Virus record (IMG/VR): IMGVR_UViG_3300015242_000001
Strand: one strand, 5' to 3'
DNA: 64,000 nucleotides
Source of the DNA: a virus
The notes beneath the pieces are model-generated. The model had not been told where the DNA came from. It ran no database searches and was given only the letters and a program-made list of their open reading frames with translations. A program made the position numbers and the translations under genes. This document shows positions 9,381 through 61,153 of the stretch, piece after piece (position 1 is the stretch's first letter; each line of letters opens with the position of its first letter).

Positions 9381-10499
9381 ATGGATTTCTCTATTACAAC
9401 TGTATTTGTTGTACCTTCTGGTAACACTTTGCCGACCACTGGTTCCACGCAGGATTTGACAGCTGGGCAGTTTGGTGTATTCGATAACGCGTATGTTCCG
9501 GCTACTTCGGGTACAGTTGCTACCAAGCCTTATATTTATTTGGCACAAGGTAGGAGTATCGCAGTACCTGGCTTAGGTTCTAAAAGGTCTGATAAAATCT
9601 TCACAAAAAATATACGTCAGTGGTATAAAGTTATCGCTGAACCTCAGATTCCGACTGAAATACTTGAATTCAGTGCATTCAATGCTAAGTGCGAGGAAGA
9701 CCTGACTATCACATTGCGTTTGATGTCTAGTTACATCAATGTAGGTTTCTATAATGGCTTGACTGAATCTATTTGGTTGAAGGCTCCCTGCTGTGATTGT
9801 GGTGGTGATCCTTGTGATACTGTTGATGCAGCTGGTATTCAATCCATTGTTGATCAGTTTGCAGCTAAAATTAATGCACACGCATTACTTTCTCGATTTG
9901 TAACTGCAATCCGTGTTGGTACTGGTGCTACCTCTATACTCCGTGTATATGGTAAAGTACTGGACAAATATGGTAATGCTTGTGAACCTAACTCCTTCTC
10001 TTTTGAATATGATCGTTTGAGCTTCTGGGGTTATGCACATAAAGGCCCTGCAACTTCTCAGGATCTGGAAGTAGCTGATGCTTGTGATACCTTTGCAACT
10101 ATCACCTATGTACAACGTGCTCAATATGGCCGTGGTTCCAGTGATGAAATTGCTCAGTTAGAACATAACTTCTACAGCTTCCAGACTACCTACAAACATA
10201 TCTTCAATCAGACCGGCTTTAATGGTGCTTATGAAAGTTATGTAACTGCTGGTACCTATTACGATACCTACTATCTGAAATTTAAGGAAGAAGATAATAT
10301 CAGTTTTGAAGACGCATCAGATCAGGATGAGACAGTTATTATAGCTGTCCCTACTGGTACTGGTACAGCCTTAGAAGCAATACTGGTTGCATTTGCTGGA
10401 GCTGTAACTGATTACAGTGCTACAGATCGTACCACGACAACTACTACTTCAACTACTTCAACCACTACCACGAGTACCACGACAATTAATATACCTTAG
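9381..10499 (+). CDS. Probable auxiliary capsid (decoration) protein with C-terminal poly-Thr/Ser tail
   Basis: Capsid-like codon bias; DLTAGQFGVF motif; position equivalent to the crAss auxiliary capsid gene; followed by a terminator; 18-residue T/S tract at 10431-10484. Confidence 0.6.
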   Translation: MDFSITTVFVVPSGNTLPTTGSTQDLTAGQFGVFDNAYVPATSGTVATKPYIYLAQGRSIAVPGLGSKRSDKIFTKNIRQWYKVIAEPQIPTEILEFSAFNAKCEEDLTITLRLMSSYINVGFYNGLTESIWLKAPCCDCGGDPCDTVDAAGIQSIVDQFAAKINAHALLSRFVTAIRVGTGATSILRVYGKVLDKYGNACEPNSFSFEYDRLSFWGYAHKGPATSQDLEVADACDTFATITYVQRAQYGRGSSDEIAQLEHNFYSFQTTYKHIFNQTGFNGAYESYVTAGTYYDTYYLKFKEEDNISFEDASDQDETVIIAVPTGTGTALEAILVAFAGAVTDYSATDRTTTTTTSTTSTTTTSTTTINIP

Positions 10500-12695: not shown

Positions 12696-14071
12696 TGCCT
12701 TGTACTAATACAAATAGTCAATCTCTAGGATATTACCCAAACACAACCGGATGTGTCAATTGCCCATCCCCTTGTCCTGAAGGGTGTGATGCAAAAGATG
12801 CTTCTTGTGTACTTTATACAGGAGCACCTTTGAATTGTATTGGAGCAGATTCTAATACAAATTTAGAGGTTATTTTACAATTAATAGATTCGAAGGTTTG
12901 CACTACTCTAGGGGATTTTAGCGGATACAATTTCTACTGTTTAATAAATTCTGGCCCTATAAATACTCAACAGCAATTTGTTGAGCGTATTTCTCAATTT
13001 GCTTGTCAAACAAGAACAGACTTTGATACTTTTACAAGTACGACTTATGTAAATGGTCTAAGTAATTTACAGACTCAGATAAACAGTCTGAATAATCCCG
13101 GTATAACTTCCTGTGCAGAATTAAATATTCAAAGTTCAGATGATCAAAATGTCGTTTTAACAAAACTTTCTAATGGTGCATGTGCTATTTATGATGCAAT
13201 TGATCCATCTTCAGCAAACTGGTCACAGTGTTTTACTTTAGTTGGGGATGCTCCAGCTAACATAGTAGAAGGGTTTAATACTGTATTGGATCAAATTTGT
13301 CAATTGAAGAATGGTGGAGCAAGTGCGTCTCTCCCTACCTTCAATAATGTGGGCAGTTGTTTAGCAACTCCTGTTACAGCAACTGACAGTCTAGTCGATA
13401 CTGTTAATAAAATTAAAATAAGACTTTGTCTATCCCCCACTTTCAATGCTGCAAATCTTACAGCAGCTACTTGTGTATCCTATAGTTCATCTTCCACTTT
13501 AGAACAGGTATTGAATGCTACTATATCACAAGTAAACACTTTAAGTACGGAAACAATACGGGGATTTAATAATTCACAATTTATAGTAACCCCCATAGAT
13601 TCCAGTCAACCTTGCCTGGGAAATAAAATATCACTTGCTGTCGCAAATATTGATAGACTGGTGGCTTTGAATTCAGCAGATATTACTCCAAGCACATTGG
13701 ACAATAAATTTGTAGCTGGTACTAATGTTACTTTAGATTTTGGAGTTGCGAATGCTGGAAAAGTAACCATTAATGCTATCGGAGGTTCTTCTGCTGATGA
13801 AAAGGTTAAAGTAAATAGCACTGATACTACCGCTGATTATTTACAAAATAAGATAGTGGGAAGTACAGATATGGTTTCTATCAATGTATTTCCCTTCAAT
13901 TCAGATTCTCAGTTAAAGGTTTCAGCAAACTTGGATTTGGAAGCAATAATAGATTCTATAATACAAGAACTTACAGATAATGAAGAACTTAAAATCAAAT
14001 TCTGTACACTAATATCATCTTGCCCCTCTCCTTGCGATCCTCCTACTAATGTACAAGTTATACCCGCATAA
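12695..14071 (+). CDS. Cys-rich virion structural (hub/fibre) protein
   Basis: 458 aa; CVLYTG module; coiled-coil segments; TAATG coupling at both ends. Confidence 0.6.
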   Translation: MPCTNTNSQSLGYYPNTTGCVNCPSPCPEGCDAKDASCVLYTGAPLNCIGADSNTNLEVILQLIDSKVCTTLGDFSGYNFYCLINSGPINTQQQFVERISQFACQTRTDFDTFTSTTYVNGLSNLQTQINSLNNPGITSCAELNIQSSDDQNVVLTKLSNGACAIYDAIDPSSANWSQCFTLVGDAPANIVEGFNTVLDQICQLKNGGASASLPTFNNVGSCLATPVTATDSLVDTVNKIKIRLCLSPTFNAANLTAATCVSYSSSSTLEQVLNATISQVNTLSTETIRGFNNSQFIVTPIDSSQPCLGNKISLAVANIDRLVALNSADITPSTLDNKFVAGTNVTLDFGVANAGKVTINAIGGSSADEKVKVNSTDTTADYLQNKIVGSTDMVSINVFPFNSDSQLKVSANLDLEAIIDSIIQELTDNEELKIKFCTLISSCPSPCDPPTNVQVIPA

Positions 14072-15417
14072 TGGCTTTTGTAACCAGGAATGTAACATTT
14101 AACCCGACTGCTGGGTCTACTGGTACTCTTATCGAATATAAGAAGTATGGGGAGACTATGTGGGTAGTACCAACCGTTCCATCGAATCCCACCTCTTTAA
14201 CTACATATCCGTTGAGTTTAGAGGAAGGATATAGTTATTATATAAGAGCTTCGGCGATTGGTCTAAACTGTTCAAAAGGATCAGTAATCACTACTGTAAG
14301 TATTCCTGCAATTACCACCACTACAACCACTTCTTCGACGACAACCACCACTACTACTGGTATACCAATTCCGGTACAGGAGATAATAAATCTGGGAACC
14401 CCCAATGGAATAGCATTTAATCAGAATAATAATAGAATGTATTATATAGACTTCGATACTATAGGTACGCTGTCTATAACTGATGGTGGAGTAGGGTATT
14501 ATAATCCGTTAACTGCAACTAGTATTTCCGATATCACTTATCCTGTATCTGCAAGAGGAATGATGCTTGAACACATGGCATATGATTCCACAAACAATAA
14601 GTTATTCATTCATGGTAGGAAGTCCGGAGGCATGTTAATTTATAATTGCGCTACAAATATTGTAGATACAACTATTGCATATGGTTCCAATGGGAATTCT
14701 GTAGCAACCCGCCAAAAGGTTTATTCAATAGGTAATAGAATATATGGAGGCTACTCTGCTATTGGGGGTTTCGTAGTGGTAGATCCTACAACTAATACAA
14801 GGTTGACTGATTTTATACCCCCCAATACAGGCTCATTTGCAACCTTTAGAATGGTAGTAGCAGGATCAGAGCTTTGGTTATTCGAAACATCTTCCGCATC
14901 AACCCCGTCTAGGGTACTGATATACTCAATGTCTGATCTCTCTTCCCCTATAGCAACAATTAATAATATTGATACTGTTCAGATACCAGGAGGCACATAT
15001 GAAATATCAGATAGTATTTATTATGATGCACCTACAAATAGTGTATGGTTTGTTTCTTTTGGAAGTTTGCAAATAATAGCAATAAGTGCATCATCCAGAA
15101 CTATAATTCACACTACAACTATTCCATCTGAAGGTAAGGCTATGGCTTTAATGAATCCAGTTTACAGACAAAGCAGCGATACTCTTTATATGAGTGGTAT
15201 ACTTGCTAATTCATTTACAGATTCCGGCTTACCAAGAATTTACCAAATAGATAAAACTACTGGTAATATCATCGCAACATTTACAACATTCTCAATCGGA
15301 TCATTAACATATTGTCCTCTGAATAATAGCAATTATGCTGTTGTACCCGGATTAGCCAGTTACAGTATCCCCAATACCGGATATGACACAGACGGTAAAA
15401 TAATAACTTATAATTAA
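14071..15417 (+). CDS. FN3/Ig-like domain, Thr linker and beta-propeller protein
   Basis: N-terminal EYKK..W...YYIRA; T/S tract at 14314-14358; repeated blades (IAFNQNNNRMYY, MAYDSTNNKLFI, IYYDAPTNSVWF). Confidence 0.6.
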   Translation: MAFVTRNVTFNPTAGSTGTLIEYKKYGETMWVVPTVPSNPTSLTTYPLSLEEGYSYYIRASAIGLNCSKGSVITTVSIPAITTTTTTSSTTTTTTTGIPIPVQEIINLGTPNGIAFNQNNNRMYYIDFDTIGTLSITDGGVGYYNPLTATSISDITYPVSARGMMLEHMAYDSTNNKLFIHGRKSGGMLIYNCATNIVDTTIAYGSNGNSVATRQKVYSIGNRIYGGYSAIGGFVVVDPTTNTRLTDFIPPNTGSFATFRMVVAGSELWLFETSSASTPSRVLIYSMSDLSSPIATINNIDTVQIPGGTYEISDSIYYDAPTNSVWFVSFGSLQIIAISASSRTIIHTTTIPSEGKAMALMNPVYRQSSDTLYMSGILANSFTDSGLPRIYQIDKTTGNIIATFTTFSIGSLTYCPLNNSNYAVVPGLASYSIPNTGYDTDGKIITYN

Positions 15418-15761: not shown

Positions 15762-18700
15762 ATGCTAATCCCAACAAATGGTTGTTTGATCATAATGCCA
15801 GGACAATGTGTTAGATACACAGGTCCAGATACTCCCTTTTTACATATTCACAATGGGATGAATCTTAATGAGATAATTGGCATTATTGATGCAGCTATTG
15901 CGGCAGGGGGAATAACCACGACAACTACTTCCACTAGTACTACTTCAACTACCTCATCAACCACTACTACTACAACTACGATTAATACCATCCCTGTAAC
16001 AGTAAGTTATTTGGATGCAAGTAATGTTACTTCATATCAAGTACAATTGATACAGGGTAGTAACGTAATAGGTAACTATTTGGTAAATACCCCTACAGGA
16101 TCAGATTTCACGAATCTAAATATTCCTCCTGGTATATATGATGTAAGAGCTATTGTTAATCTTTCAAGTAATCAAAGAGTATTACAGTTTCAATCAAACT
16201 CCATTACTCCAGTAATTGATACAACATTTACTTCAAGTATAAACAGGCTGTTTTCTGGAAGGTTGATCACTAATCCAAGCCAATTGGTATTGAGTGATTT
16301 GGGTAATACTACAACGACATCGACTACTACCACAACGTCTACGACTCAACCTCCGACGACTACCACTACTACAAGTTCTTCAACCACCACTACAACTACT
16401 ACAGCTCCTCCAACAACAACGACTACTAGTACATCTACTTCCACAACCAGTACTTCTTCAACCACCACAACGAGTTCAACAAATTCACAAGGAGGTAATG
16501 TTTATACAATTGTCGGAACGAATAATACACTCTCTATAAATGGTGCTCAGTATGCTTGCGGTGATACAATAATTCTTTCTGGTTCATTTAAAGCCGTAGA
16601 GTTTGTAAACCTTAATGGATGTAATGGTAATTACATAACAGTAACAAACCCCGTTGGTCAGACAACTTTCATTGGAGATACAGCATGGAGCAGTGGATCT
16701 TGGTCAACAGCATTTGCATTTAGAAATTGTCATTACGTAAGACTTGTAGGTACTACCAAGAATAATTTCATAGTAAATGGTTCACTTACTGCTACCAGAA
16801 CTGCGTATTTCAATTTAGCAATTGTAGCCCTCTCTGATAATTTTGAAGTATCAAATATTACTATACAAGATGGTGGTACTGGATTGTATGCTAAAACTGA
16901 ACCAGTTCCTGGGGATGCAAATACATATGATCCTGTTGGCGGTCCTTATACTTATCTGAATAACTTCAAATTCCATGATGTAAACATCATAAATACTTAC
17001 AATGAGGCTACTTATATAGGTCACACTGGTCCGTATTGGGATTTAACATCTAATACTCAGTTTAACGGTACTCAGTCTCAATTTGTGCCCGGTCATAGTT
17101 ACGCCGAACCTAAACGTTTAAATAACGTAGAAGTCTACAATATTTATGCTGAAGGATCTGGAGCTGATGGTATTCAAACCGCAGCTGCTGAAAACATGGT
17201 TATCCACCATTGTGAAGTAAACACTTGGGCAATAAGACAAGATCCTAACCATTGCGGAGGTATATTAATAGGTGGAAAATGTAGAAATGTAGAAGCCTAT
17301 TGCAACTATGTACATGATGGATGGGGAGAATTACTGCAAATCTCTAGTGCAGATGGTACAGGTGGAGCTTTCATGAAAATCCACAACAACCTATTCAAAA
17401 ACAACTTTATAACAAATGGTGGAAATGATGGTTGTACATTTAAAGGAACCAATGGTTTAATTGTACAATTCTATGATAATACCGTTGTTCAAACTGGTGG
17501 AAACAATTTAAGATTCTATACTGGTAATGGACATTTAATAAACAGGAATGTACTTATTCAGCCGAGAATGGCAGGTGGTACGATTTCCAGTAGAGCATAT
17601 ATCTATGATGAACCTGGAGTAACCTGGATAGAAGGTACTGGTGCTAATTCAAATGGTAAATACCCCGACATCGCAACTGCAAACGTTGATCCGCTGAATT
17701 GGTATCAGCCGAATTCTGGATCTCCTGCTATTGGAAAAGGATATGTGAGAGGAGTATGTGATGGTACAGGTACAACAACTACCTCTACTTCCAGTACGAC
17801 TACTACAACTACTACATCAGGTGGTCCCACAACAACGACAACTTCAACCAGTACATCAAGCACTTCCACTACAAGTACTTCGTCTACTTCTAGTACGACT
17901 ACTACTTCAACAACGAATCCTCCCGGAACCGCATCGTTTACAAAAGTGAATGGCTGGTGGACTGGAGCACCTTCTGCACAATACGGATGGTTATACTTAC
18001 CGGCAGATTATAGTCCTGTAGGTCCGGCATTCCCCTTTGTGATATTCTTACATGGTCAAGGTGAAACTGGTACTGGTTCTGGAGCTGGTGGAGCAGATGA
18101 TTTGTTAGTAGCTGGTCCTCCTAAATTCCTCAATGCTGGAGATAGGCCAACAGGGGTTGTTATATTCTGTCCCCAAACGTCTATTAATACATGGGAACCT
18201 AACTGGGTAGAATCTGCAAGGCAGTTTGTATTGAGTCATTATAATGTAGACGTTAATAAGTTCTATTTAACAGGATTGTCATTGGGAGGATCTGGAACTG
18301 CTAAATATACAGGTCAGAATCCTGATAAAGTAGCTGCATTCCTTTGTGCCACTGCTGATACACAATACTTGAGAAACGGTGCTGAAGATGACGTGATAAA
18401 TGGAATTAGGGTAGCGGATGTACCTGGATGGGTATTGGCTGGCGTAGCGGATACTACCATATCATTCAATAACTGTTATGGTTATATGACTGCTGGTAAT
18501 TCTCTTGCAACTAAACCTACTTATCCTCCTTTAGTAAATACTTTCTGGGGAGTTACCCATAGTGCATCTTTGTGGGATACTCAAGTATATAATAGAAAAA
18601 ATAGAACGGATGCAACTGGTACAGCTGCTTTTGATTATATAGCATGGTTTAAGAGATTCAAATCAAATGATTTAGAGTTTGGTGCTACCTCACATGTAGT

Positions 18701-20126
18701 TGTCGCAGAAACTTCAGTTACAACAGACAAAACAATTGCTTGGAAAGATTACAGAATAGCAGCTGTTTTAGTAAATAAATTGAGTGCAGGGACAGTTAAA
18801 ACTGATCTCTTGAGTAGGTTAGCAGTAGTAAAATCAAGCATACAAGCTGATTGGAAAGTTGTTGAACTTAGTTTTGGTAGCACTGCAATAGCGGGTGTTA
18901 ACATATTAGCAAGTGTAAATGACAATCAGACAGTAAGTGATATGTTTGATATTAGCGCCAATGCAACTACTATAGATTTCACGTTGAATGCTACAGTGTG
19001 GGATGGTCAGGTAAATATTGGAACTGGTAATGAATATTTAGGTATGCCTACTGCCTTCTGGGCAAACGGATGGAGAATATACAGTACTTCAGCAAATACT
19101 TGTACCATTGCAGGTTTGAGTAGTACTTCAAGCAAAGTAGTGAGATTCATTTATGGTGATATGACCCAAGTGAATACTACCCATTACGGAGCCAGAGTTA
19201 CTATTAGTGCGACAACTAAGGATTTAGATAATGAAATTCAAAATACTAATAATTACGTAGATTTTACAATAGCTCCAGGCAGTACTACAATATCTGCAAC
19301 ACTTCAACCGATAGTTGCTGGTCAACAGGGTGATCTCGCAGGTATTATAATCTTTGAAAGCGTGGCCCCTGGTACTACGACGACTACCACTACCACCTCA
19401 TCTACAACCACTACTAGTACTACGGCTGGTCCAACCACGACAACTACATCAACCAGTAGTACGTCTACTACCAGTACTTCAAGTACTTCGTCCACTTCCA
19501 CAAGTTCTACTACGACGACTACCACAACGGCAAGTGCTTCTATAGCTCAGTTTAACTTCAACCTTACAGCACAGAGTGTTCCAGGTTGGGTAGATATCAC
19601 TGGTAATCCTAGTGATGCTATTAGAACTGGTACGCATGTTGGATCTGGTGTAACGGTTAGTTCTGTAGCAACAAACAGATGGGGTACGATCGGCGGTACA
19701 ACTGCAAATAATGCGAATGGTCCAGTTGGGAGTAATGCAGAATTCCCAGCAACAGTGCTTGTGAGTTTCTTCTTCAGTGGGTTCCTTGTTTCTGCAACTA
19801 CTGCAAATAATTTGGAAATTAGTGGTTTAACTCCTGGCTCTCTTTATGATATTCATTTGATCGGAGGTAGATCATCTACAGCAGGTGCAGGTATACCAGT
19901 AGGTCAAAATAGGTTAATGGAATGGGTATGTACTGACAATGTTGGTACAGTGAAAGTAGAAGACTACGCTTGTAGAGACAATACAACAAATATACAAGTA
20001 TTTAGTAATAAAGTGGCTAATGGTACGGGAAGGATAACCATTGGAGTATTCCAAGATCCTCAAGGAGATGGAACGAATGGTGATCAGGTTGGGTATATTA
20101 ATGGTATGAGGGTTATTCCTGTATAA
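15762..20126 (+). CDS. Multidomain fibre/depolymerase: docking module, Ig-like domain, parallel beta-helix, alpha/beta-hydrolase esterase and putative carbohydrate-binding domains, joined by four Thr/Ser linkers
   Basis: Beta-helix repeats (NNVEVYNIYAEGSGADGIQ); PFVIFLHGQGE and FYLTGLSLGG (GxSxG, Ser at 18279), with plausible Asp (AGVADTT) and His (GVTHS); T/S tracts at 15915, 16308, 17772 and 19374. Confidence 0.7.
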   Translation: MLIPTNGCLIIMPGQCVRYTGPDTPFLHIHNGMNLNEIIGIIDAAIAAGGITTTTTSTSTTSTTSSTTTTTTTINTIPVTVSYLDASNVTSYQVQLIQGSNVIGNYLVNTPTGSDFTNLNIPPGIYDVRAIVNLSSNQRVLQFQSNSITPVIDTTFTSSINRLFSGRLITNPSQLVLSDLGNTTTTSTTTTTSTTQPPTTTTTTSSSTTTTTTTAPPTTTTTSTSTSTTSTSSTTTTSSTNSQGGNVYTIVGTNNTLSINGAQYACGDTIILSGSFKAVEFVNLNGCNGNYITVTNPVGQTTFIGDTAWSSGSWSTAFAFRNCHYVRLVGTTKNNFIVNGSLTATRTAYFNLAIVALSDNFEVSNITIQDGGTGLYAKTEPVPGDANTYDPVGGPYTYLNNFKFHDVNIINTYNEATYIGHTGPYWDLTSNTQFNGTQSQFVPGHSYAEPKRLNNVEVYNIYAEGSGADGIQTAAAENMVIHHCEVNTWAIRQDPNHCGGILIGGKCRNVEAYCNYVHDGWGELLQISSADGTGGAFMKIHNNLFKNNFITNGGNDGCTFKGTNGLIVQFYDNTVVQTGGNNLRFYTGNGHLINRNVLIQPRMAGGTISSRAYIYDEPGVTWIEGTGANSNGKYPDIATANVDPLNWYQPNSGSPAIGKGYVRGVCDGTGTTTTSTSSTTTTTTTSGGPTTTTTSTSTSSTSTTSTSSTSSTTTTSTTNPPGTASFTKVNGWWTGAPSAQYGWLYLPADYSPVGPAFPFVIFLHGQGETGTGSGAGGADDLLVAGPPKFLNAGDRPTGVVIFCPQTSINTWEPNWVESARQFVLSHYNVDVNKFYLTGLSLGGSGTAKYTGQNPDKVAAFLCATADTQYLRNGAEDDVINGIRVADVPGWVLAGVADTTISFNNCYGYMTAGNSLATKPTYPPLVNTFWGVTHSASLWDTQVYNRKNRTDATGTAAFDYIAWFKRFKSNDLEFGATSHVVVAETSVTTDKTIAWKDYRIAAVLVNKLSAGTVKTDLLSRLAVVKSSIQADWKVVELSFGSTAIAGVNILASVNDNQTVSDMFDISANATTIDFTLNATVWDGQVNIGTGNEYLGMPTAFWANGWRIYSTSANTCTIAGLSSTSSKVVRFIYGDMTQVNTTHYGARVTISATTKDLDNEIQNTNNYVDFTIAPGSTTISATLQPIVAGQQGDLAGIIIFESVAPGTTTTTTTTSSTTTTSTTAGPTTTTTSTSSTSTTSTSSTSSTSTSSTTTTTTTASASIAQFNFNLTAQSVPGWVDITGNPSDAIRTGTHVGSGVTVSSVATNRWGTIGGTTANNANGPVGSNAEFPATVLVSFFFSGFLVSATTANNLEISGLTPGSLYDIHLIGGRSSTAGAGIPVGQNRLMEWVCTDNVGTVKVEDYACRDNTTNIQVFSNKVANGTGRITIGVFQDPQGDGTNGDQVGYINGMRVIPV

Positions 20127-52892: not shown

Positions 52893-52937
52893 TAGCTATA
52901 TAATGAGAACTCCGTAAGATAATAACTCCCCTAATGC

Positions 52938-52968
52938 TTTCATAAACTAATTATTTTCATTAGTTTTG
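52938..52968 (+). promoter_or_regulatory. Bacteroidota-type promoter for the glycosyltransferase operon
   Basis: TTTC (52938-41)-N19-TAGTTTTG (52961-68), with ATG at 52986. Confidence 0.6.
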
Positions 52969-52985
52969 TATAATAAAACCAACCT

Positions 52986-53747
52986 ATGTCAGATTTGAAA
53001 ATAGTGTGCCTTTGTCTTTCGGCAGGTAGACATTTTTGTTTAGAAAGATCTGTATCATTTTTCTTAGATCAAGACTACCCAAACAAGCACCTAATTATAT
53101 ATCAAAACTCATCAGTACCTCAAAAGCTGGATGACTCTATAGATACATCTTTAGTAACTCTGATAAATAATAATATTTTTAGTGAAACTGGAGAACCATA
53201 TACAAATTTAGGAGATATTCATAACGATGCGATAAAACATATCCCTGAAGATGCTGATGTAGTGAACTTCTTCGATGACGACGACATAAATGCAAAATAT
53301 TTTATATATGAAGGTATACAGGGGTACAAGAGAGCAGTAGAAGCCGGTAAAAAGGCATTTAAACCCCGCACTTGCATTTTTAGGAGTATGGGAAAGATGG
53401 AGCCAGTACAAAATATCTTAGAGGGATCTTGGTTTGTGAGTGCAAAATACATTAAAGAATCGAAATTTATTTCAGGAGTAAATGTTAGCCACCATCACGG
53501 TTGGTGTAATGGTTTAATAGCTGCTCAAGATTTTTTATCTGATGATTTTTCAGAACCCGATTATGTGTACTGCTGGGGAGAAGAAGAAGTCCCCGTTTAC
53601 AAAACTTCTGGTGCTGGTGAAACTTGGAATAATTTTGCAAATTATCATAGATTTTCACAAGATCATGGTGATGGAGTAATCTCCAGAATGAATGTTGACA
53701 AATATTACAAGGAAATAGAAGAGTACAAAAAATCCAGAGGTGTTTGA
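52986..53747 (+). CDS. Glycosyltransferase, GT-A fold (GT2-like)
   Basis: IVCLCLSAGR...SVSFFLDQDYPNKHLII...FFDDDD; no transmembrane segment. Confidence 0.75.
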   Translation: MSDLKIVCLCLSAGRHFCLERSVSFFLDQDYPNKHLIIYQNSSVPQKLDDSIDTSLVTLINNNIFSETGEPYTNLGDIHNDAIKHIPEDADVVNFFDDDDINAKYFIYEGIQGYKRAVEAGKKAFKPRTCIFRSMGKMEPVQNILEGSWFVSAKYIKESKFISGVNVSHHHGWCNGLIAAQDFLSDDFSEPDYVYCWGEEEVPVYKTSGAGETWNNFANYHRFSQDHGDGVISRMNVDKYYKEIEEYKKSRGV

Positions 53748-54399
53748 TATCCCTGTTATTATAAACAATTTTAATAGAGTCACAACCACTAAGAAATTAG
53801 TAAGTGATTTACAAAACTTAGGATATACAAACGTTATCATTTTAGATAATCAATCTACATATACCCCACTTCTTGAATGGTATAAAACAAATCCCTGTAG
53901 AGTAGAACATTTAGAGAGGAATTTTCAGAGTTTAGCTGTGTATGACTGTGGCATTATAAAAGAATTTAAAGACCTCCCTTGGGTAGCCTATACAGATTCA
54001 GATATTGAACTTAACCCAAATACTCCAGCTGATTTTGTAAATACTCTTATTGAGAAAGCTGAGAAATACGATTACCCTAAAGCTGGCCTATCCATTCGTA
54101 TTGATGATCTCCCAGATACTAATTTTGCAAATGAATATAGAATTTGGGAAAGAAAATACTGGGAACATCCATTAGAAGAGAATGTATTTGATGCGCAGGT
54201 TGATACTACATTTTGTATAATAAAACCATCTCTTAGATTCGACTATAGAGCGTTAAGAGTAGCTGGAGATTTAACCTGTATTCACCGTCCCTGGTACGTA
54301 GATTTTGACAATTTGGATGAAGAAGAACTTCACTATATAGAAAAATCCCTCGACTATTCTACCTATAAACGATACTACTACACCCATAAGAATAAGTAA
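53740..54399 (+). CDS. Glycosyltransferase, GT-A fold (GT2-like)
   Basis: IPVIINNFNR...VIILDNQST...YTDSDI (DxD motif); GTG start overlapping the previous stop. Confidence 0.75.
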   Translation: MFDIPVIINNFNRVTTTKKLVSDLQNLGYTNVIILDNQSTYTPLLEWYKTNPCRVEHLERNFQSLAVYDCGIIKEFKDLPWVAYTDSDIELNPNTPADFVNTLIEKAEKYDYPKAGLSIRIDDLPDTNFANEYRIWERKYWEHPLEENVFDAQVDTTFCIIKPSLRFDYRALRVAGDLTCIHRPWYVDFDNLDEEELHYIEKSLDYSTYKRYYYTHKNK

Positions 54400-57209
54400 T
54401 GAAATTAATTAAGGATTTCCTCCTGTTAACCCCAAAAGCATTTTATAATGCTACCCGTTCAGAGCTTTGCCGTCAAGCCTCTGGATGTACCTCATCTGGC
54501 GGCCTTACTCAAGTATATAGAACGAATTCAGCTACTGTTACCTGGACTGGAGATGGTACACAAGCTAATCCGCTTGTAGCCACTGCTGCCGGAGGAACTA
54601 CCCCAACACTTCAACAAGTAACTACAGTAGGATCTACCACTAATCAAAATATGACTATTAACAGTGCTGTTCCTCAAATGAGAGTGGAGAGTACTGGATC
54701 AGGATCTAGCTTAGTCCTAACTACATCAACAAATTCAAATTCAGCATCAATAAATAATGATGCAAATAGTTCACTGATAATCCTTAATGGGGATTCAGGT
54801 TCTAGTATAAAAATTAACAATGCTGCTGGCAATACTGGAAGAGATTTAACTTTTGTAAGAGGAACAAACACAGTTACTAATACTTTCTTTACTGATGGTA
54901 GAGTTTCAGGTACAGCTGCTACAAATGCTGGAGAGTTTACGATCAAAAGTCAAGTACCCACTTTGGCTCTTGGTGCTACACTTACGGGGTTCGTTCCTAC
55001 CACTAATACCCCCGTTGCTGATACTGATACTTTATCTGACGCTTTGGGGAAATATCAAGCTCAAATTGATGCTTTAGCTGCTACTGGAACAGGTACAGTT
55101 TCATCTGTATCCCTTACAGCTCCGTCAGTGTTTACAGTATCTGGATCTCCGGTTACAACTACTGGAACCCTAGCCGTTACATTTGCAACCGGACAAACTC
55201 AAAACTTAGTACTCGCTTCTCCAAATGGTAGTAGTGGCGCAGTAAGTTTACGTGCTTTAGTTACAGCAGATATCCCGGTTTTAGATGCTGCTAAAATAAC
55301 AACAGGTACATTAGGTACTGCTCGTTTAGGATCTGGTACAGCAGACAACACAGTATTTTTACGAGGGGATGGTACATGGACAACAACCGGAATGTTGATT
55401 TCGCTGAATGCCCTTACAGCATCAACTCAAACATTCGCTGTAAGTACTACTGGTACGGATTTTACTATATCTTCAGCAACTAGTACTCACACTTTTAACT
55501 TACCCACAGCCAGTGCTTCTAATAGAGGTGCTTTAGCGTCTGCTGACTGGACAACATTCAATGGCAAACTTGGTACATTAAATACACTCACCGGAGCCAC
55601 CCAAACCTTCGCAGTGGGTTCGGCAGGAACTGACTTTGCAATTTCATCTACAGGTACTACCCATACATTTAACATTCCCGATGCCTCAGCTGCAAACAGA
55701 GGAGTAGTAACAACGGGTACGCAGACATTTGGAGGTAGTAAAACATTTAGCGCAATTACAGCGACCACTTCTATTCAAATTACCTCAACCAGCTCTAATT
55801 TATACGTACCTCTTGCTAATACAGCTCAAACTATTACTGCTGCAACACAATACCTTTTCGGTGGAGCCTCTACTATATTTTTGAGGGCCGGATTTAGAGG
55901 TTCAACATCTACAACTCTTACAGCCAATACTAGTTCAGCTAATGTGGTGATGGGGAAAGTAGATATTACAACTGCTGCAACAGGAACTCATGCAGTTTTA
56001 GCAAATCTTGTAGTAACAGCCCCTACTTTTACATCAGGAGGCGCTGCCGTCACAAATTTTGCTTCATTATATATTGATGCTGCTCCAACAGGTGCTACTA
56101 ATAACTGGGCCTCTTATGTTGCAGCAGGTGCATCTTATTTTGGTGGAAATACAGTATTTGCTTCAAATGGTACTCCAGCTGTAGGTTCTGTCCCCACAGG
56201 TACAGATACCGCAGGTAATTGGACATGGCAAACGAATGTACCTTCAGTGAATGCGTTAACTGGAGCTTTGACTATAGCCGTTGGTACATCTGGTACTGAC
56301 GTGGCTGTAAGTGCGGCTAGTACGACTGTTACAATCAACATTCCAAGTGCAAGTGCTACTGCTAGAGGAGTAGTTACTACAGGTGCTCAAACGCTTACTG
56401 GTGTAAAAACCTTTGCGAGTGATTTGAATGTTCCTGGTATCGCAATGTCAGGAAAATTGGGTATCGGTACTGGTACGACTGTCCCCACAAGTGCAAACCT
56501 CTATTCTATTAGTACTTCATTACCACAGTATAAAGGCGCGTATGATGCATCCAATTATATATTACTTACTACAGCAAGTAATGGTACAACTACTTTTGCT
56601 TTAACAGGTACTTCTCCAATTTTCATCTTTAGTCAGCAAGTTAGATTATCAGCAGGAACTCCTGGTACTGGTAAAGTACTGACTGATTCAGATGGTAGTG
56701 GATCAGCTGTATGGAGCACCCCCACTGCAAACATTCCCCTGTTTGATCATATAAGTACAGTAGGTAATACAGGTACTAGTGAAACAGATCTTTACACTGA
56801 TACTACAGCTGCCAACAGATTAAACGCTAATGGTGAAAAATTAAAGGCTAGTTATGGTGGATCTTTTGTTGGTTCAGCTACAGCTAGTAGACAAATGAGA
56901 ACATACTTTGGTGGAACTCTCATATTCGATAGTGGAGGATTAACAATGTCTCTAGCAGGAGATTGGGAAATGGACGTGTTAATTATTAGGACTGGTACTA
57001 CCACAGCAAGGGCTGTTGTTACATTTAATACCCCTGGAGCATCAACTGCTGTTTATACAACTACAACATTACTTACGGGACTTACGCTCTCAGGAACTAA
57101 TATTTTGAAAATAACCGGAACCGCAGCAGGTGCAGGAGCCGCTACAAATGATATCACAGCAAAGTTAGGGACTGTATCATGGATTCCCGCTTCAGCTAGT
57201 GTTAGTTAA
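54399..57209 (+). CDS. Thr/Gly/Ala-rich fibre protein
   Basis: Shares VSGSPVTTxGTL...ASPNGSSG...RALxTxDIP repeats with 20144 and PTGTDTAGNWTWQT with 23300; internal LNxLTxxTQTFAV repeats. Confidence 0.7.
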   Translation: MKLIKDFLLLTPKAFYNATRSELCRQASGCTSSGGLTQVYRTNSATVTWTGDGTQANPLVATAAGGTTPTLQQVTTVGSTTNQNMTINSAVPQMRVESTGSGSSLVLTTSTNSNSASINNDANSSLIILNGDSGSSIKINNAAGNTGRDLTFVRGTNTVTNTFFTDGRVSGTAATNAGEFTIKSQVPTLALGATLTGFVPTTNTPVADTDTLSDALGKYQAQIDALAATGTGTVSSVSLTAPSVFTVSGSPVTTTGTLAVTFATGQTQNLVLASPNGSSGAVSLRALVTADIPVLDAAKITTGTLGTARLGSGTADNTVFLRGDGTWTTTGMLISLNALTASTQTFAVSTTGTDFTISSATSTHTFNLPTASASNRGALASADWTTFNGKLGTLNTLTGATQTFAVGSAGTDFAISSTGTTHTFNIPDASAANRGVVTTGTQTFGGSKTFSAITATTSIQITSTSSNLYVPLANTAQTITAATQYLFGGASTIFLRAGFRGSTSTTLTANTSSANVVMGKVDITTAATGTHAVLANLVVTAPTFTSGGAAVTNFASLYIDAAPTGATNNWASYVAAGASYFGGNTVFASNGTPAVGSVPTGTDTAGNWTWQTNVPSVNALTGALTIAVGTSGTDVAVSAASTTVTINIPSASATARGVVTTGAQTLTGVKTFASDLNVPGIAMSGKLGIGTGTTVPTSANLYSISTSLPQYKGAYDASNYILLTTASNGTTTFALTGTSPIFIFSQQVRLSAGTPGTGKVLTDSDGSGSAVWSTPTANIPLFDHISTVGNTGTSETDLYTDTTAANRLNANGEKLKASYGGSFVGSATASRQMRTYFGGTLIFDSGGLTMSLAGDWEMDVLIIRTGTTTARAVVTFNTPGASTAVYTTTTLLTGLTLSGTNILKITGTAAGAGAATNDITAKLGTVSWIPASASVS
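56193..56235 (+). repeat. 43-bp perfect direct repeat, copy 2
   Basis: Identical to 25043-25085. Confidence 0.9.
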
Positions 57210-57236
57210 TTGAATTATAAATACAAAAAATAAATT

Positions 57237-57827
57237 ATGGCATTCTATCAATTCGGAGCAGTAGCAATTGTAGCTGGAGATTTGCAGTATACATTATTTA
57301 ATATCGAGGAAGGACCGGCTGTATTCCTTATGGGTTACAGTACCGTTGGTGATGGTGGAGGTGGATTTTTTAAGTGGAAGAAATATGAATTTAGTACTCC
57401 CCCAGTTCCAGATTCTTCAGTTACTTATCCATTGGGTTATAACATTATTGCTGGTAATCCAGTATTTCCTAATTGCAGATTTGAACGAATAAATAATTAT
57501 GATATACCACATACCCCACTTACTATCACGCAGTCAACGGCCTCTAGAGCAGTAAATGGTTCATATGTAATATCTACTATTAAAAATTGTATTGCAACTT
57601 ATTCTTTTAGTGTTAACTCACTGTTAACAGCAGGCACAGTATTCTTTGAAATATCTCCAGATAATAGTACTTGGCAAACTGTATCACAATTCGGAGTAGG
57701 AGCAGGTCTTACATTAACTACAATGGGGTGTGTTCATGGTTTTGTACCAAAATCATATTATACCCGACTTAGAACTACAGGATTGGCAATACTTACTATA
57801 CTAAATCAACAGGAAGTACTTATCTAA
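57237..57827 (+). CDS. Short protein with a tailspike-type N-terminal domain
   Basis: GYSTVGDGGGGFFKW resembles the N-termini of 23300 and 25578. Confidence 0.55.
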   Translation: MAFYQFGAVAIVAGDLQYTLFNIEEGPAVFLMGYSTVGDGGGGFFKWKKYEFSTPPVPDSSVTYPLGYNIIAGNPVFPNCRFERINNYDIPHTPLTITQSTASRAVNGSYVISTIKNCIATYSFSVNSLLTAGTVFFEISPDNSTWQTVSQFGVGAGLTLTTMGCVHGFVPKSYYTRLRTTGLAILTILNQQEVLI

Positions 57828-57855
57828 TAGAATTAAAAACCAAAAATAAATACAT

Positions 57856-58485
57856 ATGGATAGATTAAGTATAATCAATTATTTGATTAAAAATAATAAT
57901 TATACAAGTTATTGCAATTTGGGTGTTTTCACGGGGTACACACTTGATAGTGTACTCTGTATACACAAAGTAGGAGTTGATCCTTCACCTGAACATTACA
58001 GAGGTAATTGTATCATAAAGAGTAAAACTTCAGATGATTATTTCAAACAATTGGATGAGGAAAAGTACTCTCACAAATTTGACCTCTTTTTTGTGGACGG
58101 TATGCATTTAGAAGAATACGTTTTAAGGGATATATCTAATTGTTTAAGATATTTATCAGACAATGGTAAAATAATTCTCCATGACTGCCTTCCAAGTAAG
58201 TGGGAACATGCACAAGAGCAATGGCTAGAACCAGAATGGAATGGTACAGTTTATAAAGCAATTCTTAGGTTCATGCGAGATGATATTTTCGGAAGTTATA
58301 CAGTAAGAACAGTGAATACAGATTATGGCTGTACTATAATTGAACGAAATGAAATCCCCCTGGAAAAGAATATTGATTTTGAAATGTATGATAAAGCCAT
58401 TGAAGACTTCAATTACTTCTTAGAGAATAAAGAAAAGCTATTCAACATTATAACCCCAGAAGAGTTTTATCAACTTTATAGCTAA
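57856..58485 (+). CDS. Class I SAM-dependent methyltransferase (Methyltransf_24-like, possibly a sugar O-methyltransferase)
   Basis: YCNLGVFTG; FDLFFVDGMH...D..N....L..NG.IILHDC. Confidence 0.8.
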   Translation: MDRLSIINYLIKNNNYTSYCNLGVFTGYTLDSVLCIHKVGVDPSPEHYRGNCIIKSKTSDDYFKQLDEEKYSHKFDLFFVDGMHLEEYVLRDISNCLRYLSDNGKIILHDCLPSKWEHAQEQWLEPEWNGTVYKAILRFMRDDIFGSYTVRTVNTDYGCTIIERNEIPLEKNIDFEMYDKAIEDFNYFLENKEKLFNIITPEEFYQLYS

Positions 58486-58518
58486 AATATCCCCAACTAC
58501 ATATTGAAAAACCAACCT

Positions 58519-59541
58519 ATGAAAGACCTTATATTTTTATCAGCAATTCCTGATGATCACTACTTCATTTTTCAGGTAGAAACTCAAATTAATTCATTTC
58601 AAAAATTTGGGTATAGTGAAAAAATGCACATCCTTCTTTATCGTGCGCCGGATAGACCCGAATGGAATAAAGAATGGGAAATTTTAGAACAGAGATACCC
58701 AGAAGTAAAGTTCTTTAGATATGAAGATAGGGGGATATTCAATATTCTAAGAAATGTTTACCTCCCTATATTAAGACCTCATATTATCTGGCAGCATTTT
58801 GAAAAATATACAGAATTATCTGAAAAAGCTATATTCTATCATGATAGTGATATAACGATACATTCCACTATCCCATTTGAAAAATGGTTAGATGACGACA
58901 TTTGTTACATGAGTAATACAAATAGTTATATAAATGCATCATACTGGGACTCTAAAGTAAATGATGTACTTCCTTCAAAATTGGAAGAGTATAAAAAAGT
59001 AGATGTGTTAGATGAGGCTTGCAAATTAGTAGGAATAACGAGAGAAATTGCAGTTAAAAATAATGAGCATTCGGGCGGCGCTCAAACCCTCTTTAAAAAT
59101 ATTGATGCGAACTACTGGAAGAAAGTTGAAGAAGATTGTATAAAGATTAGGATCTATTTATCTGGTATTAATTCAAAGTATTTTGAGTCTGAAGACAGAG
59201 GATTACAAGGATTTTGCTCAGATATGTGGAGTTGCTTGTGGAATACTTGGCTTAGAGGAACTGAAACAAAAATAGTTCCAGAACTTTCTTTTGTTTGGGC
59301 TACTGATCACATATCTAAATGGGATTCCTCTTCAATTTTTCATAATGCTGGAGCAGGTCCGCAGCCAATGAGAGTGGGGGATGTAGATCATCAGATATTT
59401 TTTAAAGGTCACTACGCATCAAATCAAAAATCCCCATTTGATGATAAAGAACAACCCTATTTAGATGCAACCTCTCCTGATTTTTGCACATACAATTATG
59501 TACAGGAGATTAAAGAAGTTAGAAACAAATATTATAAATAA
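58519..59541 (+). CDS. GT-A glycosyltransferase resembling peptidyl-serine galactosyltransferase / HPAT (GT96/GT95-like)
   Basis: Ordered motifs YFIFQ...NSFQKFG, YLPILRP, FYHDSD (DxD), GGAQ, GFCSDMW and IFHNAG; ATG at 58519 preferred over TTG at 58504. Confidence 0.65.
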   Translation: MKDLIFLSAIPDDHYFIFQVETQINSFQKFGYSEKMHILLYRAPDRPEWNKEWEILEQRYPEVKFFRYEDRGIFNILRNVYLPILRPHIIWQHFEKYTELSEKAIFYHDSDITIHSTIPFEKWLDDDICYMSNTNSYINASYWDSKVNDVLPSKLEEYKKVDVLDEACKLVGITREIAVKNNEHSGGAQTLFKNIDANYWKKVEEDCIKIRIYLSGINSKYFESEDRGLQGFCSDMWSCLWNTWLRGTETKIVPELSFVWATDHISKWDSSSIFHNAGAGPQPMRVGDVDHQIFFKGHYASNQKSPFDDKEQPYLDATSPDFCTYNYVQEIKEVRNKYYK

Positions 59542-59559
59542 CCCCTTAAATTTTAAAGA

Positions 59560-59943
59560 ATGCCGAGCGCTAGACACAATCTAAAGGCTTATGTCTTGTA
59601 TAAAAATGACAAGCTGGTCCCCGGAGTACTGGTATTAAGAACAAAGAAACCTACTGGTAATAATTGGTCAGAGGTACCTGCAAGATGTTGCTCAGATGTA
59701 ACAATTCCAGGATTTTTCAGGTCACATGGTCCCTTAAAGGGCTATATAAAGTATGCTAAAGATGGATATGTAATCTCTAGTTCTACTATTTTACGATCTA
59801 AGAAGCCCTCTCAAGGTCGCTGGGTAGAATTGCCAATACATCTCTGCTGCGAGTATTCCACCACGAGCACCACAACTACTTCCACCAGTACCTCAACCTC
59901 TACTACTTCATCCACAACTACCACAACAACTACCATCCCATAA
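59560..59943 (+). CDS. Small protein with two tandem ~45-aa repeats and a poly-Thr/Ser tail
   Basis: LKAYVLY...LRTKKP...W.EVP..CC and LKGYIKY...LRSKKP...W.ELP..CC; 26-residue S/T tract at 59857-59934. Confidence 0.7.
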   Translation: MPSARHNLKAYVLYKNDKLVPGVLVLRTKKPTGNNWSEVPARCCSDVTIPGFFRSHGPLKGYIKYAKDGYVISSSTILRSKKPSQGRWVELPIHLCCEYSTTSTTTTSTSTSTSTTSSTTTTTTTIP

Positions 59944-60000
59944 TATCAGTTAGGAAATTGTTTGTTAGCCAATTACCCACCCTCAAACCTAACTAATGCA

Positions 60001-60264
60001 ATGGCAAATCAACTGCAAGAATTTAAATCATTCGGTATACCTGTATGGATGCGTAAATATCTATATGGATCAATACTTACTGGCCTAATTACTTTTAATG
60101 TTATTCAATACGTTGAAAATAAAAAATGTAAAGATAAAATGTATCAAGAAATGAAATCAATTTTAGATAGAGAGCTTAAATTCGCTGAAGAGAGAGTAAG
60201 TGCTAAAATAGATAATACACAGAAGAAAGTAGACAGCCTAGATAACAAAATAAATAAGAAATAA
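60001..60264 (+). CDS. Membrane-anchored coiled-coil protein (possible lysis/spanin component)
   Basis: One hydrophobic helix (YLYGSILTGLITFNVIQY) followed by a coiled coil; ATG at 60001. Confidence 0.4.
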   Translation: MANQLQEFKSFGIPVWMRKYLYGSILTGLITFNVIQYVENKKCKDKMYQEMKSILDRELKFAEERVSAKIDNTQKKVDSLDNKINKK

Positions 60265-60548
60265 TGGAAATAATAAAAGCCGGACTAGGCTGTATCACAT
60301 TCTTATTTATTATGGTGGGGTTTACCTCCCCTAAGTCGTTATCAGGGAAGTGTGACGGATGTGACGCATATCTCTCTCAAAAAGATTCTATCACAATAAG
60401 TAGAGAATTTAAAAAGCCGATTGACTCCTTTACAGTCAAAAACCTGAAAAAAGTTGATCAATTAAACGATTCAATCAACAAAATAGAAACCAAGATAAAT
60501 GAAAATAGAAACCAAAGATCTTCCCCCCATACTAAGGGAAAACGATAG
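60264..60548 (+). CDS. N-terminally anchored coiled-coil protein (possible lysis/spanin component)
   Basis: Hydrophobic N-terminus, coiled-coil C-terminus; TAATG coupling. Confidence 0.4.
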   Translation: MEIIKAGLGCITFLFIMVGFTSPKSLSGKCDGCDAYLSQKDSITISREFKKPIDSFTVKNLKKVDQLNDSINKIETKINENRNQRSSPHTKGKR

Positions 60549-60792
60549 TTCTTACCTTCACTTTATAGAAGATTCTATTAATCATGCTGACCCCAGTGCA
60601 AACCTGTTTATAAGGCAGAATCTTGAAGGTTTGGTGTTCTCTATCCAACCGTCCCTGGAATCCACTAAACAGCCTTTAATTGATAATCTCTTACGTTCCC
60701 ACAGTAGACTTTTTCTGAAGATAAAATTCAGTTCATCTTTATCAATTCAGAAGCAAATTATTTTTTCAATTAAGTTCGATGAGATTTGGTAA
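60499..60792 (+). CDS. Hypothetical protein
   Basis: 97-aa ORF with ATG after an A-rich leader; overlaps the previous ORF. Confidence 0.55.
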   Translation: MKIETKDLPPILRENDSSYLHFIEDSINHADPSANLFIRQNLEGLVFSIQPSLESTKQPLIDNLLRSHSRLFLKIKFSSSLSIQKQIIFSIKFDEIW

Positions 60793-60816
60793 ATCTAATG
60801 ATATTTATTAGTTTTG
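60785..60816 (+). promoter_or_regulatory. Bacteroidota-type promoter
   Basis: TTTG (60785-88)-N20-TAGTTTTG (60809-16), full consensus. Confidence 0.75.
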
Positions 60817-60841
60817 CAGTATAAAATAGTAAAACCACAAT

Positions 60842-61153
60842 ATGGCAATAGTTAAAAAAATGGAAGAAAACCAACCAGTACCAGAAGTAGTAAAACCAAG
60901 TTTCCAGCCTGGAAAGCAGTACAGCTGGGGAGAAGGAGATAAATCTCAATGGACATTTAATGGCAATGAATTTGCAATTCTCTATAATGGGTTAGCTGCA
61001 TTTGTAAATACTCCGGAAGTAGTGAATACCTTACGAGTAGTGGATGCTTTTAAAGTACTTCAAGATGCGTTTATAAATGGCATTGCTGAAGGTGTTGTAA
61101 CAGAAGTACAGAATGATATTCCAATAGAACTCCCCACCACAGAAGAAGATTAA
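60842..61153 (+). CDS. Hypothetical protein (monocistronic, own promoter and terminator)
   Basis: 103-aa ORF between a consensus promoter and a terminator. Confidence 0.7.
   Translation: MAIVKKMEENQPVPEVVKPSFQPGKQYSWGEGDKSQWTFNGNEFAILYNGLAAFVNTPEVVNTLRVVDAFKVLQDAFINGIAEGVVTEVQNDIPIELPTTEED

Follow-up and report, generated by a model that had tools for sequence, protein, structure and literature searches.

The enzyme gene, its family and its predicted fold

We analysed 64,000 nucleotides of viral DNA (IMG/VR record IMGVR_UViG_3300015242_000001; hereafter the window, meaning this whole stretch), in which a gene for a putative glycosyltransferase, referred to below as the enzyme, lies where the block of structural genes ends (Table 1). 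Its open reading frame runs from an ATG to a stop at 59541; an alternative in-frame TTG start lies at 58504, but alignments with homologues begin at residue 1 of the protein read from the ATG. An earlier note on this sequence, written by eye, had likened the product to the plant enzyme SRGT1 of family GT96 on the strength of six motifs, all of which we found in the translation and in the order that it gave (YFIFQ...QINSFQKFG, YLPILRP, IFYHDSDITI, GGAQ, GFCSDMW and IFHNAG). In an alignment of 95 family members, with a mean identity to the window enzyme of about 36%, residues Y81, D109, D111, Q230, H275 and K296 are 100% conserved, and R86, G186, G187, Q189, D235, A277 and G278 at least 90% conserved. 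Because they are conserved across this alignment, the motifs are under selection and not chance strings.

The enzyme corresponds to phrog_4417, a PHROGs family of unknown function (E 1e-42, with residues 8-335 aligned to positions 5-292 of the 293 in the profile). The family comprises 221 clusters at 90% identity and 902 at 50% identity, 497 of the latter at E<=1e-30, with matches in 465 IMG/VR stretches and in 77 deposited phage genomes. The deposited carriers are phages of Chryseobacterium, Enterococcus, Lactobacillus, Lactococcus, Staphylococcus, Clostridium and Arcanobacterium, and the few cellular carriers are Bacteroidota and Myxococcota genomes or metagenome-assembled genomes (MAGs). 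None of the members collected bears a functional annotation, and we found no paper that describes the family or ties an HPAT-like enzyme or poly-threonine tags to phages. Natural fusions of a methyltransferase to the glycosyltransferase occur (P0134 and P0171), and other members are joined to GT2, GT6, GT7C or GT25 domains. Pfam gave no match in the window enzyme itself. NCBI-style searches and sequence searches of the PDB with the enzyme returned nothing meaningful; the two PDB profile matches (E 0.06-0.25) were to designed thioredoxin-like proteins and were dismissed.

An AlphaFold2 (AF2) model built from a 38-sequence alignment had a mean predicted local distance difference test score (pLDDT) of 94.1 and a predicted template modelling score of 0.91, and its fold is that of a retaining-type GT-A glycosyltransferase of the GT8-like clan. 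The best solved neighbours, found with Foldseek and with an exhaustive VIA-align search of the PDB, were retaining GT-A enzymes: Skp1 alpha-galactosyltransferase (Skp1 GlaT1, 6mw8; Z 14.6), glycogenin (Z 14.2), LgtC (Z 14.1), WbbM (Z 13.8), UGGT (Z 13.7), GlyE (Z 13.2) and, more distantly, PBCV-1 A64R (Z 11.4), with GT6 enzymes and XXYLT1 also among them. No HPAT or SGT1 structure figured among these solved-structure matches. As in GT8-type enzymes, the retaining GT-A fold comes with a DxD and a downstream His, and D109, D111 and H275 are invariant in the family; we take the DSD at 109-111 and His275 to be the counterpart of the DxD-plus-His metal site of the GT8 clan, judging by position in the sequence. 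Glycogenin, Skp1 GlaT1 and GlyE from the pneumococcal serine-rich-repeat pathway (Z 13-14.6), all of which have proteins as their targets, share this DxD and downstream His. However, they are only 5-12% identical to the enzyme, and Pfam Glyco_transf_8 (PF01501) matched neither the window enzyme nor any of the relatives scanned.

The protein opens with strand beta-1 at residues 4-11 (pLDDT about 96), with no hydrophobic segment before it. Neither the model nor the N-terminal sequence, from which this was judged, suggests a membrane segment, and the enzyme thus appears to be soluble.

Relation to the HPAT/SRGT1-like domain

HPAT (PF23452), the domain of the plant and algal hydroxyproline and serine glycosyltransferases HPAT1-3 (GT95) and SGT1/SRGT1 (GT96), is the only Pfam family that recurs among the relatives of the enzyme. 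The Pfam model did not match the homologues from Pedobacter, Sediminibacterium or Chryseobacterium phage. A profile-profile comparison with hhalign aligned the phage family (95 sequences) to 28 PF23452-positive bacterial domains end to end, over 271 columns, with a probability of 86% and E 5e-6, and to the single bacterial protein P0269 (HPAT at 34.4 bits, cut-off 23.9) with E 1.7e-5. Control comparisons with a GT6 domain and with the GT2-like protein of the window covered only 13-24 columns around the DxD, with probabilities below 2%. The motif pairs YxPxxRP/YPIYNKP, DSD/DPD, CADMW/ESDMF, HNAG/HYCQ and FxKGxY/WxKxxY fall in register, and YPIYNKP, LIDPDCVF, WESDMF and IIHYCQ from bacterial proteins above the HPAT threshold match the phage motifs column by column. 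For GGAQ the bacterial PF23452 domains offer no clear counterpart, and the enzyme carries extra insertions (about 340 amino acids vs about 290). We regard this support for homology as moderate, not overwhelming. BLASTP of the window enzyme against the HPAT-PqqD protein described below gave nothing significant, and the relation is visible at the level of profiles and structures only.

Structural comparisons pointed the same way. In the ESM Atlas, HPAT-bearing clusters were among the nearest named neighbours of the enzyme by sequence features, and by structure it matched a Chlorophyta HPAT+ShK cluster with a template modelling (TM) score of 0.71 over 298 residues and bacterial PqqD+HPAT clusters with 0.69, vs 0.56-0.58 for GT8 clusters. 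We also modelled a bona fide bacterial HPAT domain with AF2 (pLDDT 93.7). Its top match among the viral structures of BFVD was A0A6J5SW30, a member of the phage family from an uncultured phage (E 3e-10), which is also the top match of the window enzyme model (E 1.5e-30, TM 0.83-0.88). The PDB list of this HPAT-domain model is much the same as that of the enzyme (6mw8, glycogenin, BoGT6a, LgtC, UGGT and WbbM; Z 14-15.7). Best structural matches of GT8 type, which the earlier note had named as evidence against its proposal, are indeed what the solved structures give, yet they cannot separate an HPAT-like from a GT8-like enzyme, because a genuine HPAT domain yields the same list.

The kinship proposed at the outset thus holds at the level of the HPAT/SRGT1-like domain, through the hhalign alignment, the Atlas TM scores and the reciprocal structural match, and falls short of the Pfam threshold. 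Here an affinity to GT96 (Ser-Gal) is indistinguishable from one to GT95 (Hyp-Ara, where Hyp is hydroxyproline), the sequences compared being bacterial. We regard the enzyme, on profiles and predicted structure, as a divergent sister branch of the HPAT/SGT1-like domain family and not as a Pfam-level member of it. The idea that this family is known mainly from plants and algae does not stand, as PF23452 has many bacterial members.

Among these, the nearest relatives of the enzyme that pass the Pfam HPAT model are bacterial PqqD-HPAT proteins, namely P0269 and about 120 relatives. All of the P0269 relatives collected are PF23452-positive, with the PqqD domain at the C-terminus. Unlike the phage enzyme, they are encoded in cellular genomes with no link to phage structural genes. 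PqqD is a peptide-recognition domain of the pathways that make ribosomal peptides modified after translation (RiPPs). In a Myxococcales MAG (L012, JABSQW010000487.1), an HPAT-PqqD protein (34.4 vs 23.9 bits) is encoded in tandem with a phage-type enzyme. The surrounding cluster (L012:129-8160) encodes a 2-oxoglutarate-Fe(II) oxygenase of PF13640, the HPAT-PqqD protein, the phage-type enzyme, a methyltransferase and a GT25 protein; the phage-type enzyme here has two discoidin-like C-terminal domains. PF13640 includes prolyl 4-hydroxylases, and the cluster looks like a pathway of peptide hydroxylation and O-glycosylation, reminiscent of the modification of plant extensin or of Skp1. Both the PqqD fusions and this cluster support the view that the wider HPAT-like family may handle peptides. 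A further bacterial PF23452 protein, P0326 (528 amino acids), is fused to an FkbM-family methyltransferase domain, which parallels the methyltransferase fusions in the phage family.

Thr/Ser-rich tracts and neighbouring genes

In isolate phages of Enterococcus, Lactobacillus, Lactococcus, Staphylococcus and Clostridium, the gene that comes directly before the enzyme gene encodes a major capsid protein, a major tail protein or a small protein of the head side. Eight of ten isolate lineages carry a poly-Thr tract, here called a tag, on the product of the gene immediately upstream. These products are gp18 of Clostridium phage phiCTP1, orf13 of Lactococcus phage 1706, gp8 of Lactobacillus phage iLp84, proteins of Lactobacillus phages Bacchae and 521B (the latter with (TTVKP)n repeats) and of Chryseobacterium phage MA9V-3, and the major tail proteins of Enterococcus phage phiFL1A and Staphylococcus phage PMBT8. 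Lactococcus phage bIL285 carries its tag on the major tail protein, whose gene lies 1.3 kb downstream of that for the enzyme, so that overall 9/10 lineages have a tag on a tail- or capsid-side gene adjoining or near the enzyme. Because the morphogenesis modules of these lineages are quite different, they constitute independent evidence. About 200 proteins are homologous to the bIL285 tail protein, for the most part from phages of Streptococcus and Ruminococcus, and the enzyme is found in none of those phage groups. The four homologues inspected, all from enzyme-less phages (Ruminococcus phiRg507T2_3, Javan569, Javan499 and Exiguobacterium EauS-123), end with no Thr run. The presence of the tag tracks that of the enzyme across phages, a genomic coupling. 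In five small Firmicutes phages with the enzyme we detected no GT2, GT1 or GT8 protein; because no other glycosyltransferase is detectable there, the enzyme would act alone or with host enzymes.

A similar association was seen in 80 IMG/VR loci, in which we counted as a tract any 12 residues that include 10 or more Ser/Thr, over flanks of up to 10 kb on either side of the enzyme gene. Tract density over the first kb was 0.46 per kb on the downstream side and 0.23 per kb on the upstream side. In the other 18 one-kb bins it was 0-0.07 per kb, or about 0.016 pooled, so that the kb on either side of the enzyme gene is roughly 10-25x richer in tracts than the rest of the 10-kb flanks. A tract on the same strand within 1.5 kb was present in 38 of the 68 loci that have both flanks. 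Most tracts (33/51) form C-terminal tails, mostly on proteins of 44-100 amino acids. We also observed that 25/51 begin directly after a Cys-Cys pair (CCxP or CCxY, then the T-run), the small carriers belonging to no known family (L017-L096).

In the window, the enzyme gene is followed by the gene for a small protein with a Thr/Ser tail, the nearest candidate acceptor, whose two repeats are W.E.P..CC units. The local order is a gene for a 3031-amino-acid protein, then those for the 253-amino-acid protein, the GT2-like protein, the 936-amino-acid fibre, a 196-amino-acid protein, the Methyltransf_24 methyltransferase, the enzyme and the tailed protein. The structural block before it (Table 1) also holds large fibre-like proteins, and a 776-amino-acid protein within it (36752-39082) has a zinc-metallopeptidase-like N-terminal region (Zn_peptidase_2, E 2e-10). 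The methyltransferase is 34% identical (E 5e-31) to residues 1-240 of P0134, the N-terminal domain of that fusion, and probably modifies the glycan. The GT2-like protein is a candidate for either a glycan-extending enzyme or a rival initiator. Together with the fusions, the enzyme, methyltransferase and GT2-like protein are what would be expected of a glycan-building module. The module of the window is unusually complete: it comprises the enzyme and the methyltransferase together with the GT2-like gene(s), and its tagged proteins number at least four. Co-transcription is suggested by the tight same-strand spacing only; a scan for promoters and terminators over 52800-61000 gave nothing above chance.

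Table 1. Positions in the window of the enzyme gene, its neighbours and genes for candidate acceptor proteins (aa, amino acids).
Feature	Position	Strand	Remarks
Portal	755-3325		Structural block
Major head protein	5949-7499		Structural block
372-aa head-module protein	9381..10499	+	C-terminal Thr/Ser tail, then INIP; candidate acceptor
448-aa protein	14071..15417	+	Internal 21-residue Thr/Ser tract; candidate acceptor
1454-aa protein	15762..20126	+	Four Thr/Ser tracts of ~29-65 residues between domains; candidate acceptor
253-aa protein, family unknown	52986..53747	+	Head of module; no Pfam/PHROG match; GT2-like label of the earlier note not confirmed
GT2-like glycosyltransferase, 219 aa	53740..54399	+	PF00535 at E 1e-4, 22.7 bits, just under the cut-off of 23.3
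936-aa fibre-like protein	54399..57209	+	Rich in Thr/Ser/Gly/Ala; weak BppL_N match
S-adenosylmethionine-dependent methyltransferase (Methyltransf_24)	57856..58485	+	Pfam E 9e-10
HPAT/SGT1-like GT-A glycosyltransferase (phrog_4417), the enzyme	58519..59541	+	340 aa; DSD 109-111, His275, Gln230, Lys296
127-aa protein	59560..59943	+	Two repeats, each ending Cys-Cys; 26-residue pure Thr/Ser tail, within the final 30 residues, ending IP; candidate acceptor

The closest relative of this locus is a contig (L014) with an enzyme 60% identical to that of the window, encoded in the order 3006-amino-acid protein, 256-amino-acid protein, methyltransferase, enzyme and 130-amino-acid tailed protein. The 256-amino-acid protein is 58% identical to the 253-amino-acid protein of the window, and the tailed protein 65% identical to its window counterpart. 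L014 lacks the genes for the GT2-like protein, the 936-amino-acid fibre and the 196-amino-acid protein. The corresponding stretch of the window (53740-57827), which lies between the gene of 253-amino-acid type and the methyltransferase gene, looks like an inserted or exchanged fibre cassette. A second contig (L015, enzyme 48% identical) encodes within 5 kb of the enzyme a 670-residue fusion of an epimerase/dehydratase/RmlD-like domain, of the kind acting on nucleoside diphosphate (NDP)-sugars, with methyltransferase domains (L015:10437-12449), and also a GT2 (13017-13772). Because this fusion and the GT2 lie near the enzyme, we suggest that some of these phages may make their own modified nucleotide sugar.

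Proposed function and its alternatives

The most likely function of the enzyme, one that we favour with some confidence, would be O-glycosylation of the Thr/Ser tails and linkers of the phage's own virion proteins by addition of the first sugar. The earlier note had already cast it as the initiating Ser/Thr transferase; comparative genomics fits that role, with tracts beside the gene, no tag where the enzyme is missing, and the enzyme as sole glycosyltransferase in some phages, and the role itself we infer. We propose that the enzyme is a cytoplasmic, soluble, metal-dependent and probably retaining GT-A transferase. During infection it would move a hexose-type sugar from an NDP-sugar onto Thr/Ser hydroxyls of disordered tags, before or during virion assembly, and the nearest candidate target is the tailed protein whose gene comes next. 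Extension of the glycan by the GT2-like enzyme(s) or its O-methylation by the Methyltransf_24 enzyme would follow, and the end product would be a mucin-like coat on the particle. What the analysis establishes is the predicted fold, the conserved DxD/His/Gln/Lys site, the distant homology to HPAT and the genomic link to the tags, whereas the acceptor, the initiating step, the stereochemistry, the donor sugar and the biological effect are inferred.

Several observations weigh against this proposal. The window enzyme gave no match to the Pfam HPAT model even at E<=10 (gathering threshold 23.9 bits), and its relatives gave only weak ones, in 2/38 and 3/95 sequences with a best E of 2e-4; the hhalign probability was 86% and not above 95%. 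Because the solved neighbours mix protein-directed and glycan-extending enzymes, the predicted fold leaves the acceptor unsettled. The 80 viral loci are mutually related and are not independent counts. Of those with both flanks, just 56% have a stringent tract within 1.5 kb. In Enterococcus phage 9183 (MT939241.1) we found no run of eight Thr codons in 86 kb; its enzyme gene lies directly after the major capsid gene, an exception to the pairing of tag and enzyme. The one or two GT2-like genes of the window are possible initiators instead. Finally, we found in the literature no biochemical or mass-spectrometric data on any family member or carrier phage.

The enzyme might instead extend a glycan in the same virion pathway, with the GT2-like proteins (52986-54399) or a host enzyme providing the first sugar and the enzyme a later, probably alpha-linked one. 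Glycan-extending GT8-type enzymes are indeed among its solved neighbours (Skp1 alpha-galactosyltransferase, LgtC, GlyE and XXYLT1), a GT2-like gene lies upstream in the window, and some relatives are fused to a second glycosyltransferase domain. We nevertheless consider such a role rather unlikely, since in the five small Firmicutes phages the enzyme is the sole detectable glycosyltransferase beside a tagged protein, since the model of a genuine HPAT domain, drawn from a family of enzymes known to initiate on peptides, shares the same PDB neighbours, and since the kinship in both sequence and predicted structure is nearest to HPAT and not to GT8. Homologues lie within modules for head or tail morphogenesis, next after the genes for major capsid or major tail proteins, and track poly-Thr tags, which argues against an acceptor other than protein, whether host cell-envelope polymers (for a block of superinfection or a change of receptor) or bases of phage DNA. 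Both sorts of phage glycosyltransferase are well known (for glycosylation of DNA, bioRxiv 10.1101/2023.12.21.572611), and the fold defines neither donor nor acceptor. The model and N-terminal sequence suggest no membrane segment, however, and no base-modification genes of the 5-hydroxymethylcytosine type were seen adjoining the enzyme gene in a search that was not exhaustive. Altogether we judge a non-protein acceptor to be improbable.

Our estimate is lower still for action on hydroxyproline, as in true HPATs, the sites being Pro residues flanking the tracts (IP, AAP, TTVKP). It is the Thr run that co-varies with the enzyme, several tags have no Pro (those of phages 1706 and PMBT8, for example), and a non-exhaustive scan of the window proteins detected no prolyl hydroxylase. 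What speaks for this idea is the HPAT kinship itself, the many tracts that contain or end in Pro, and the clustering of a bacterial relative with a 2-oxoglutarate-Fe(II) oxygenase of PF13640, which has prolyl 4-hydroxylases among its members. A position among structural genes would also suit a catalytically dead structural or scaffolding protein that keeps the GT-A fold, but the DxD, His, Gln and Lys do not vary among 95 members with about 36% mean identity to the window enzyme, and members are fused to other sugar-pathway enzymes; we find a dead protein hardly credible.

The proposed activity as initiating O-glycosyltransferase has counterparts in several known systems. Plant and algal HPAT1-3 and SGT1/SRGT1 have the same GT-A domain with collinear motifs, as judged via the bacterial PF23452 members and the nearest predicted structures; the motifs common to PF23452 and the enzyme are the N-terminal WQ helix, Y-P-x-x-[RK]-P, DxD, [CE][AS]DM[WF] and H-x-x-[GQ]. 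Enzymes of HPAT/SGT1 type attach the first sugar straight to protein tracts that are repetitive and rich in hydroxyls (PMC8012813, PMC4908140), and those of plants are type II Golgi membrane proteins (PMC8012813). The phage enzyme, in contrast, has no type II anchor or Golgi context, and its probable acceptor is poly-Thr/Ser, whereas that of plant SGT1/HPAT is Ser-Hyp4. Chlorovirus PBCV-1 A64R is likewise a virus-encoded cytoplasmic GT-A enzyme that glycosylates its own virus's capsid protein, but it belongs to a eukaryotic virus, makes atypical N-linked glycans and is a much more distant fold match (Z 11.4). O-glycosylation of Ser/Thr-rich disordered protein regions is known in streptococci (PMC12041528).

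Phage self-glycosylation itself is known; what appears to be new here is its route, through a different enzyme lineage and a recognisable tag. To our knowledge, almost all experimental evidence for glycosylation of phage particles comes from mycobacteriophages. Freeman et al. reportedly described virion O-glycosylation of Che8 and other mycobacteriophages in 2023, and the glycosyltransferases involved are said to be of a different family from the enzyme here. In mycobacteriophages, too, phage-encoded glycosyltransferases adjoin capsid or tail genes; their acceptors are extensions at the C-terminus of capsid and tail-tube proteins, and the result is a virion with a coat of sugar. A glycosyltransferase gene within the structural module, next to a candidate acceptor, is what we found in the window and in the isolate phages. 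The mycobacteriophage systems differ in their actinobacterial hosts, vs Bacteroidota and Firmicutes here, and in that the putative acceptor here is a recognisable, portable poly-Thr/Ser tag. PMC11256854 is among the papers that cite this glycosylation of mycobacteriophage virions.

In its broadest form, our proposal is that phages possess a widespread, portable two-part system, in which a genetically encoded 'glyco-tag' of poly-Thr/Ser is paired with an HPAT-like O-glycosyltransferase that is cytoplasmic and initiates the glycan. In phages of Bacteroidota and Firmicutes it would provide a mucin-like coat for small decoration proteins, fibres, tail tubes and capsids, and its enzyme would belong to an ancient lineage shared with the plant extensin-glycosylating enzymes, most of whose diversity would be prokaryotic and viral and not of plants. 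Taken jointly, we think these claims have about an even chance of being right. The cultured carriers 1706, bIL285, phiFL1A, iLp84 and PMBT8 make the idea directly testable. If true, hundreds of phage lineages, including dairy phages of Lactococcus and Lactobacillus and phages of Enterococcus and Staphylococcus, would coat their virions with O-glycans through a tag-plus-enzyme device. Such a coat would bear on phage stability, adherence to mucus, masking of receptors and the way in which therapeutic phages are recognised by the immune system. With just one soluble enzyme and a short poly-Thr tag, the device would also make a compact cytoplasmic O-glycosylation tool, and the HPAT/SGT1 lineage, which the literature treats as plant and algal, would reach deep into bacteria and viruses.

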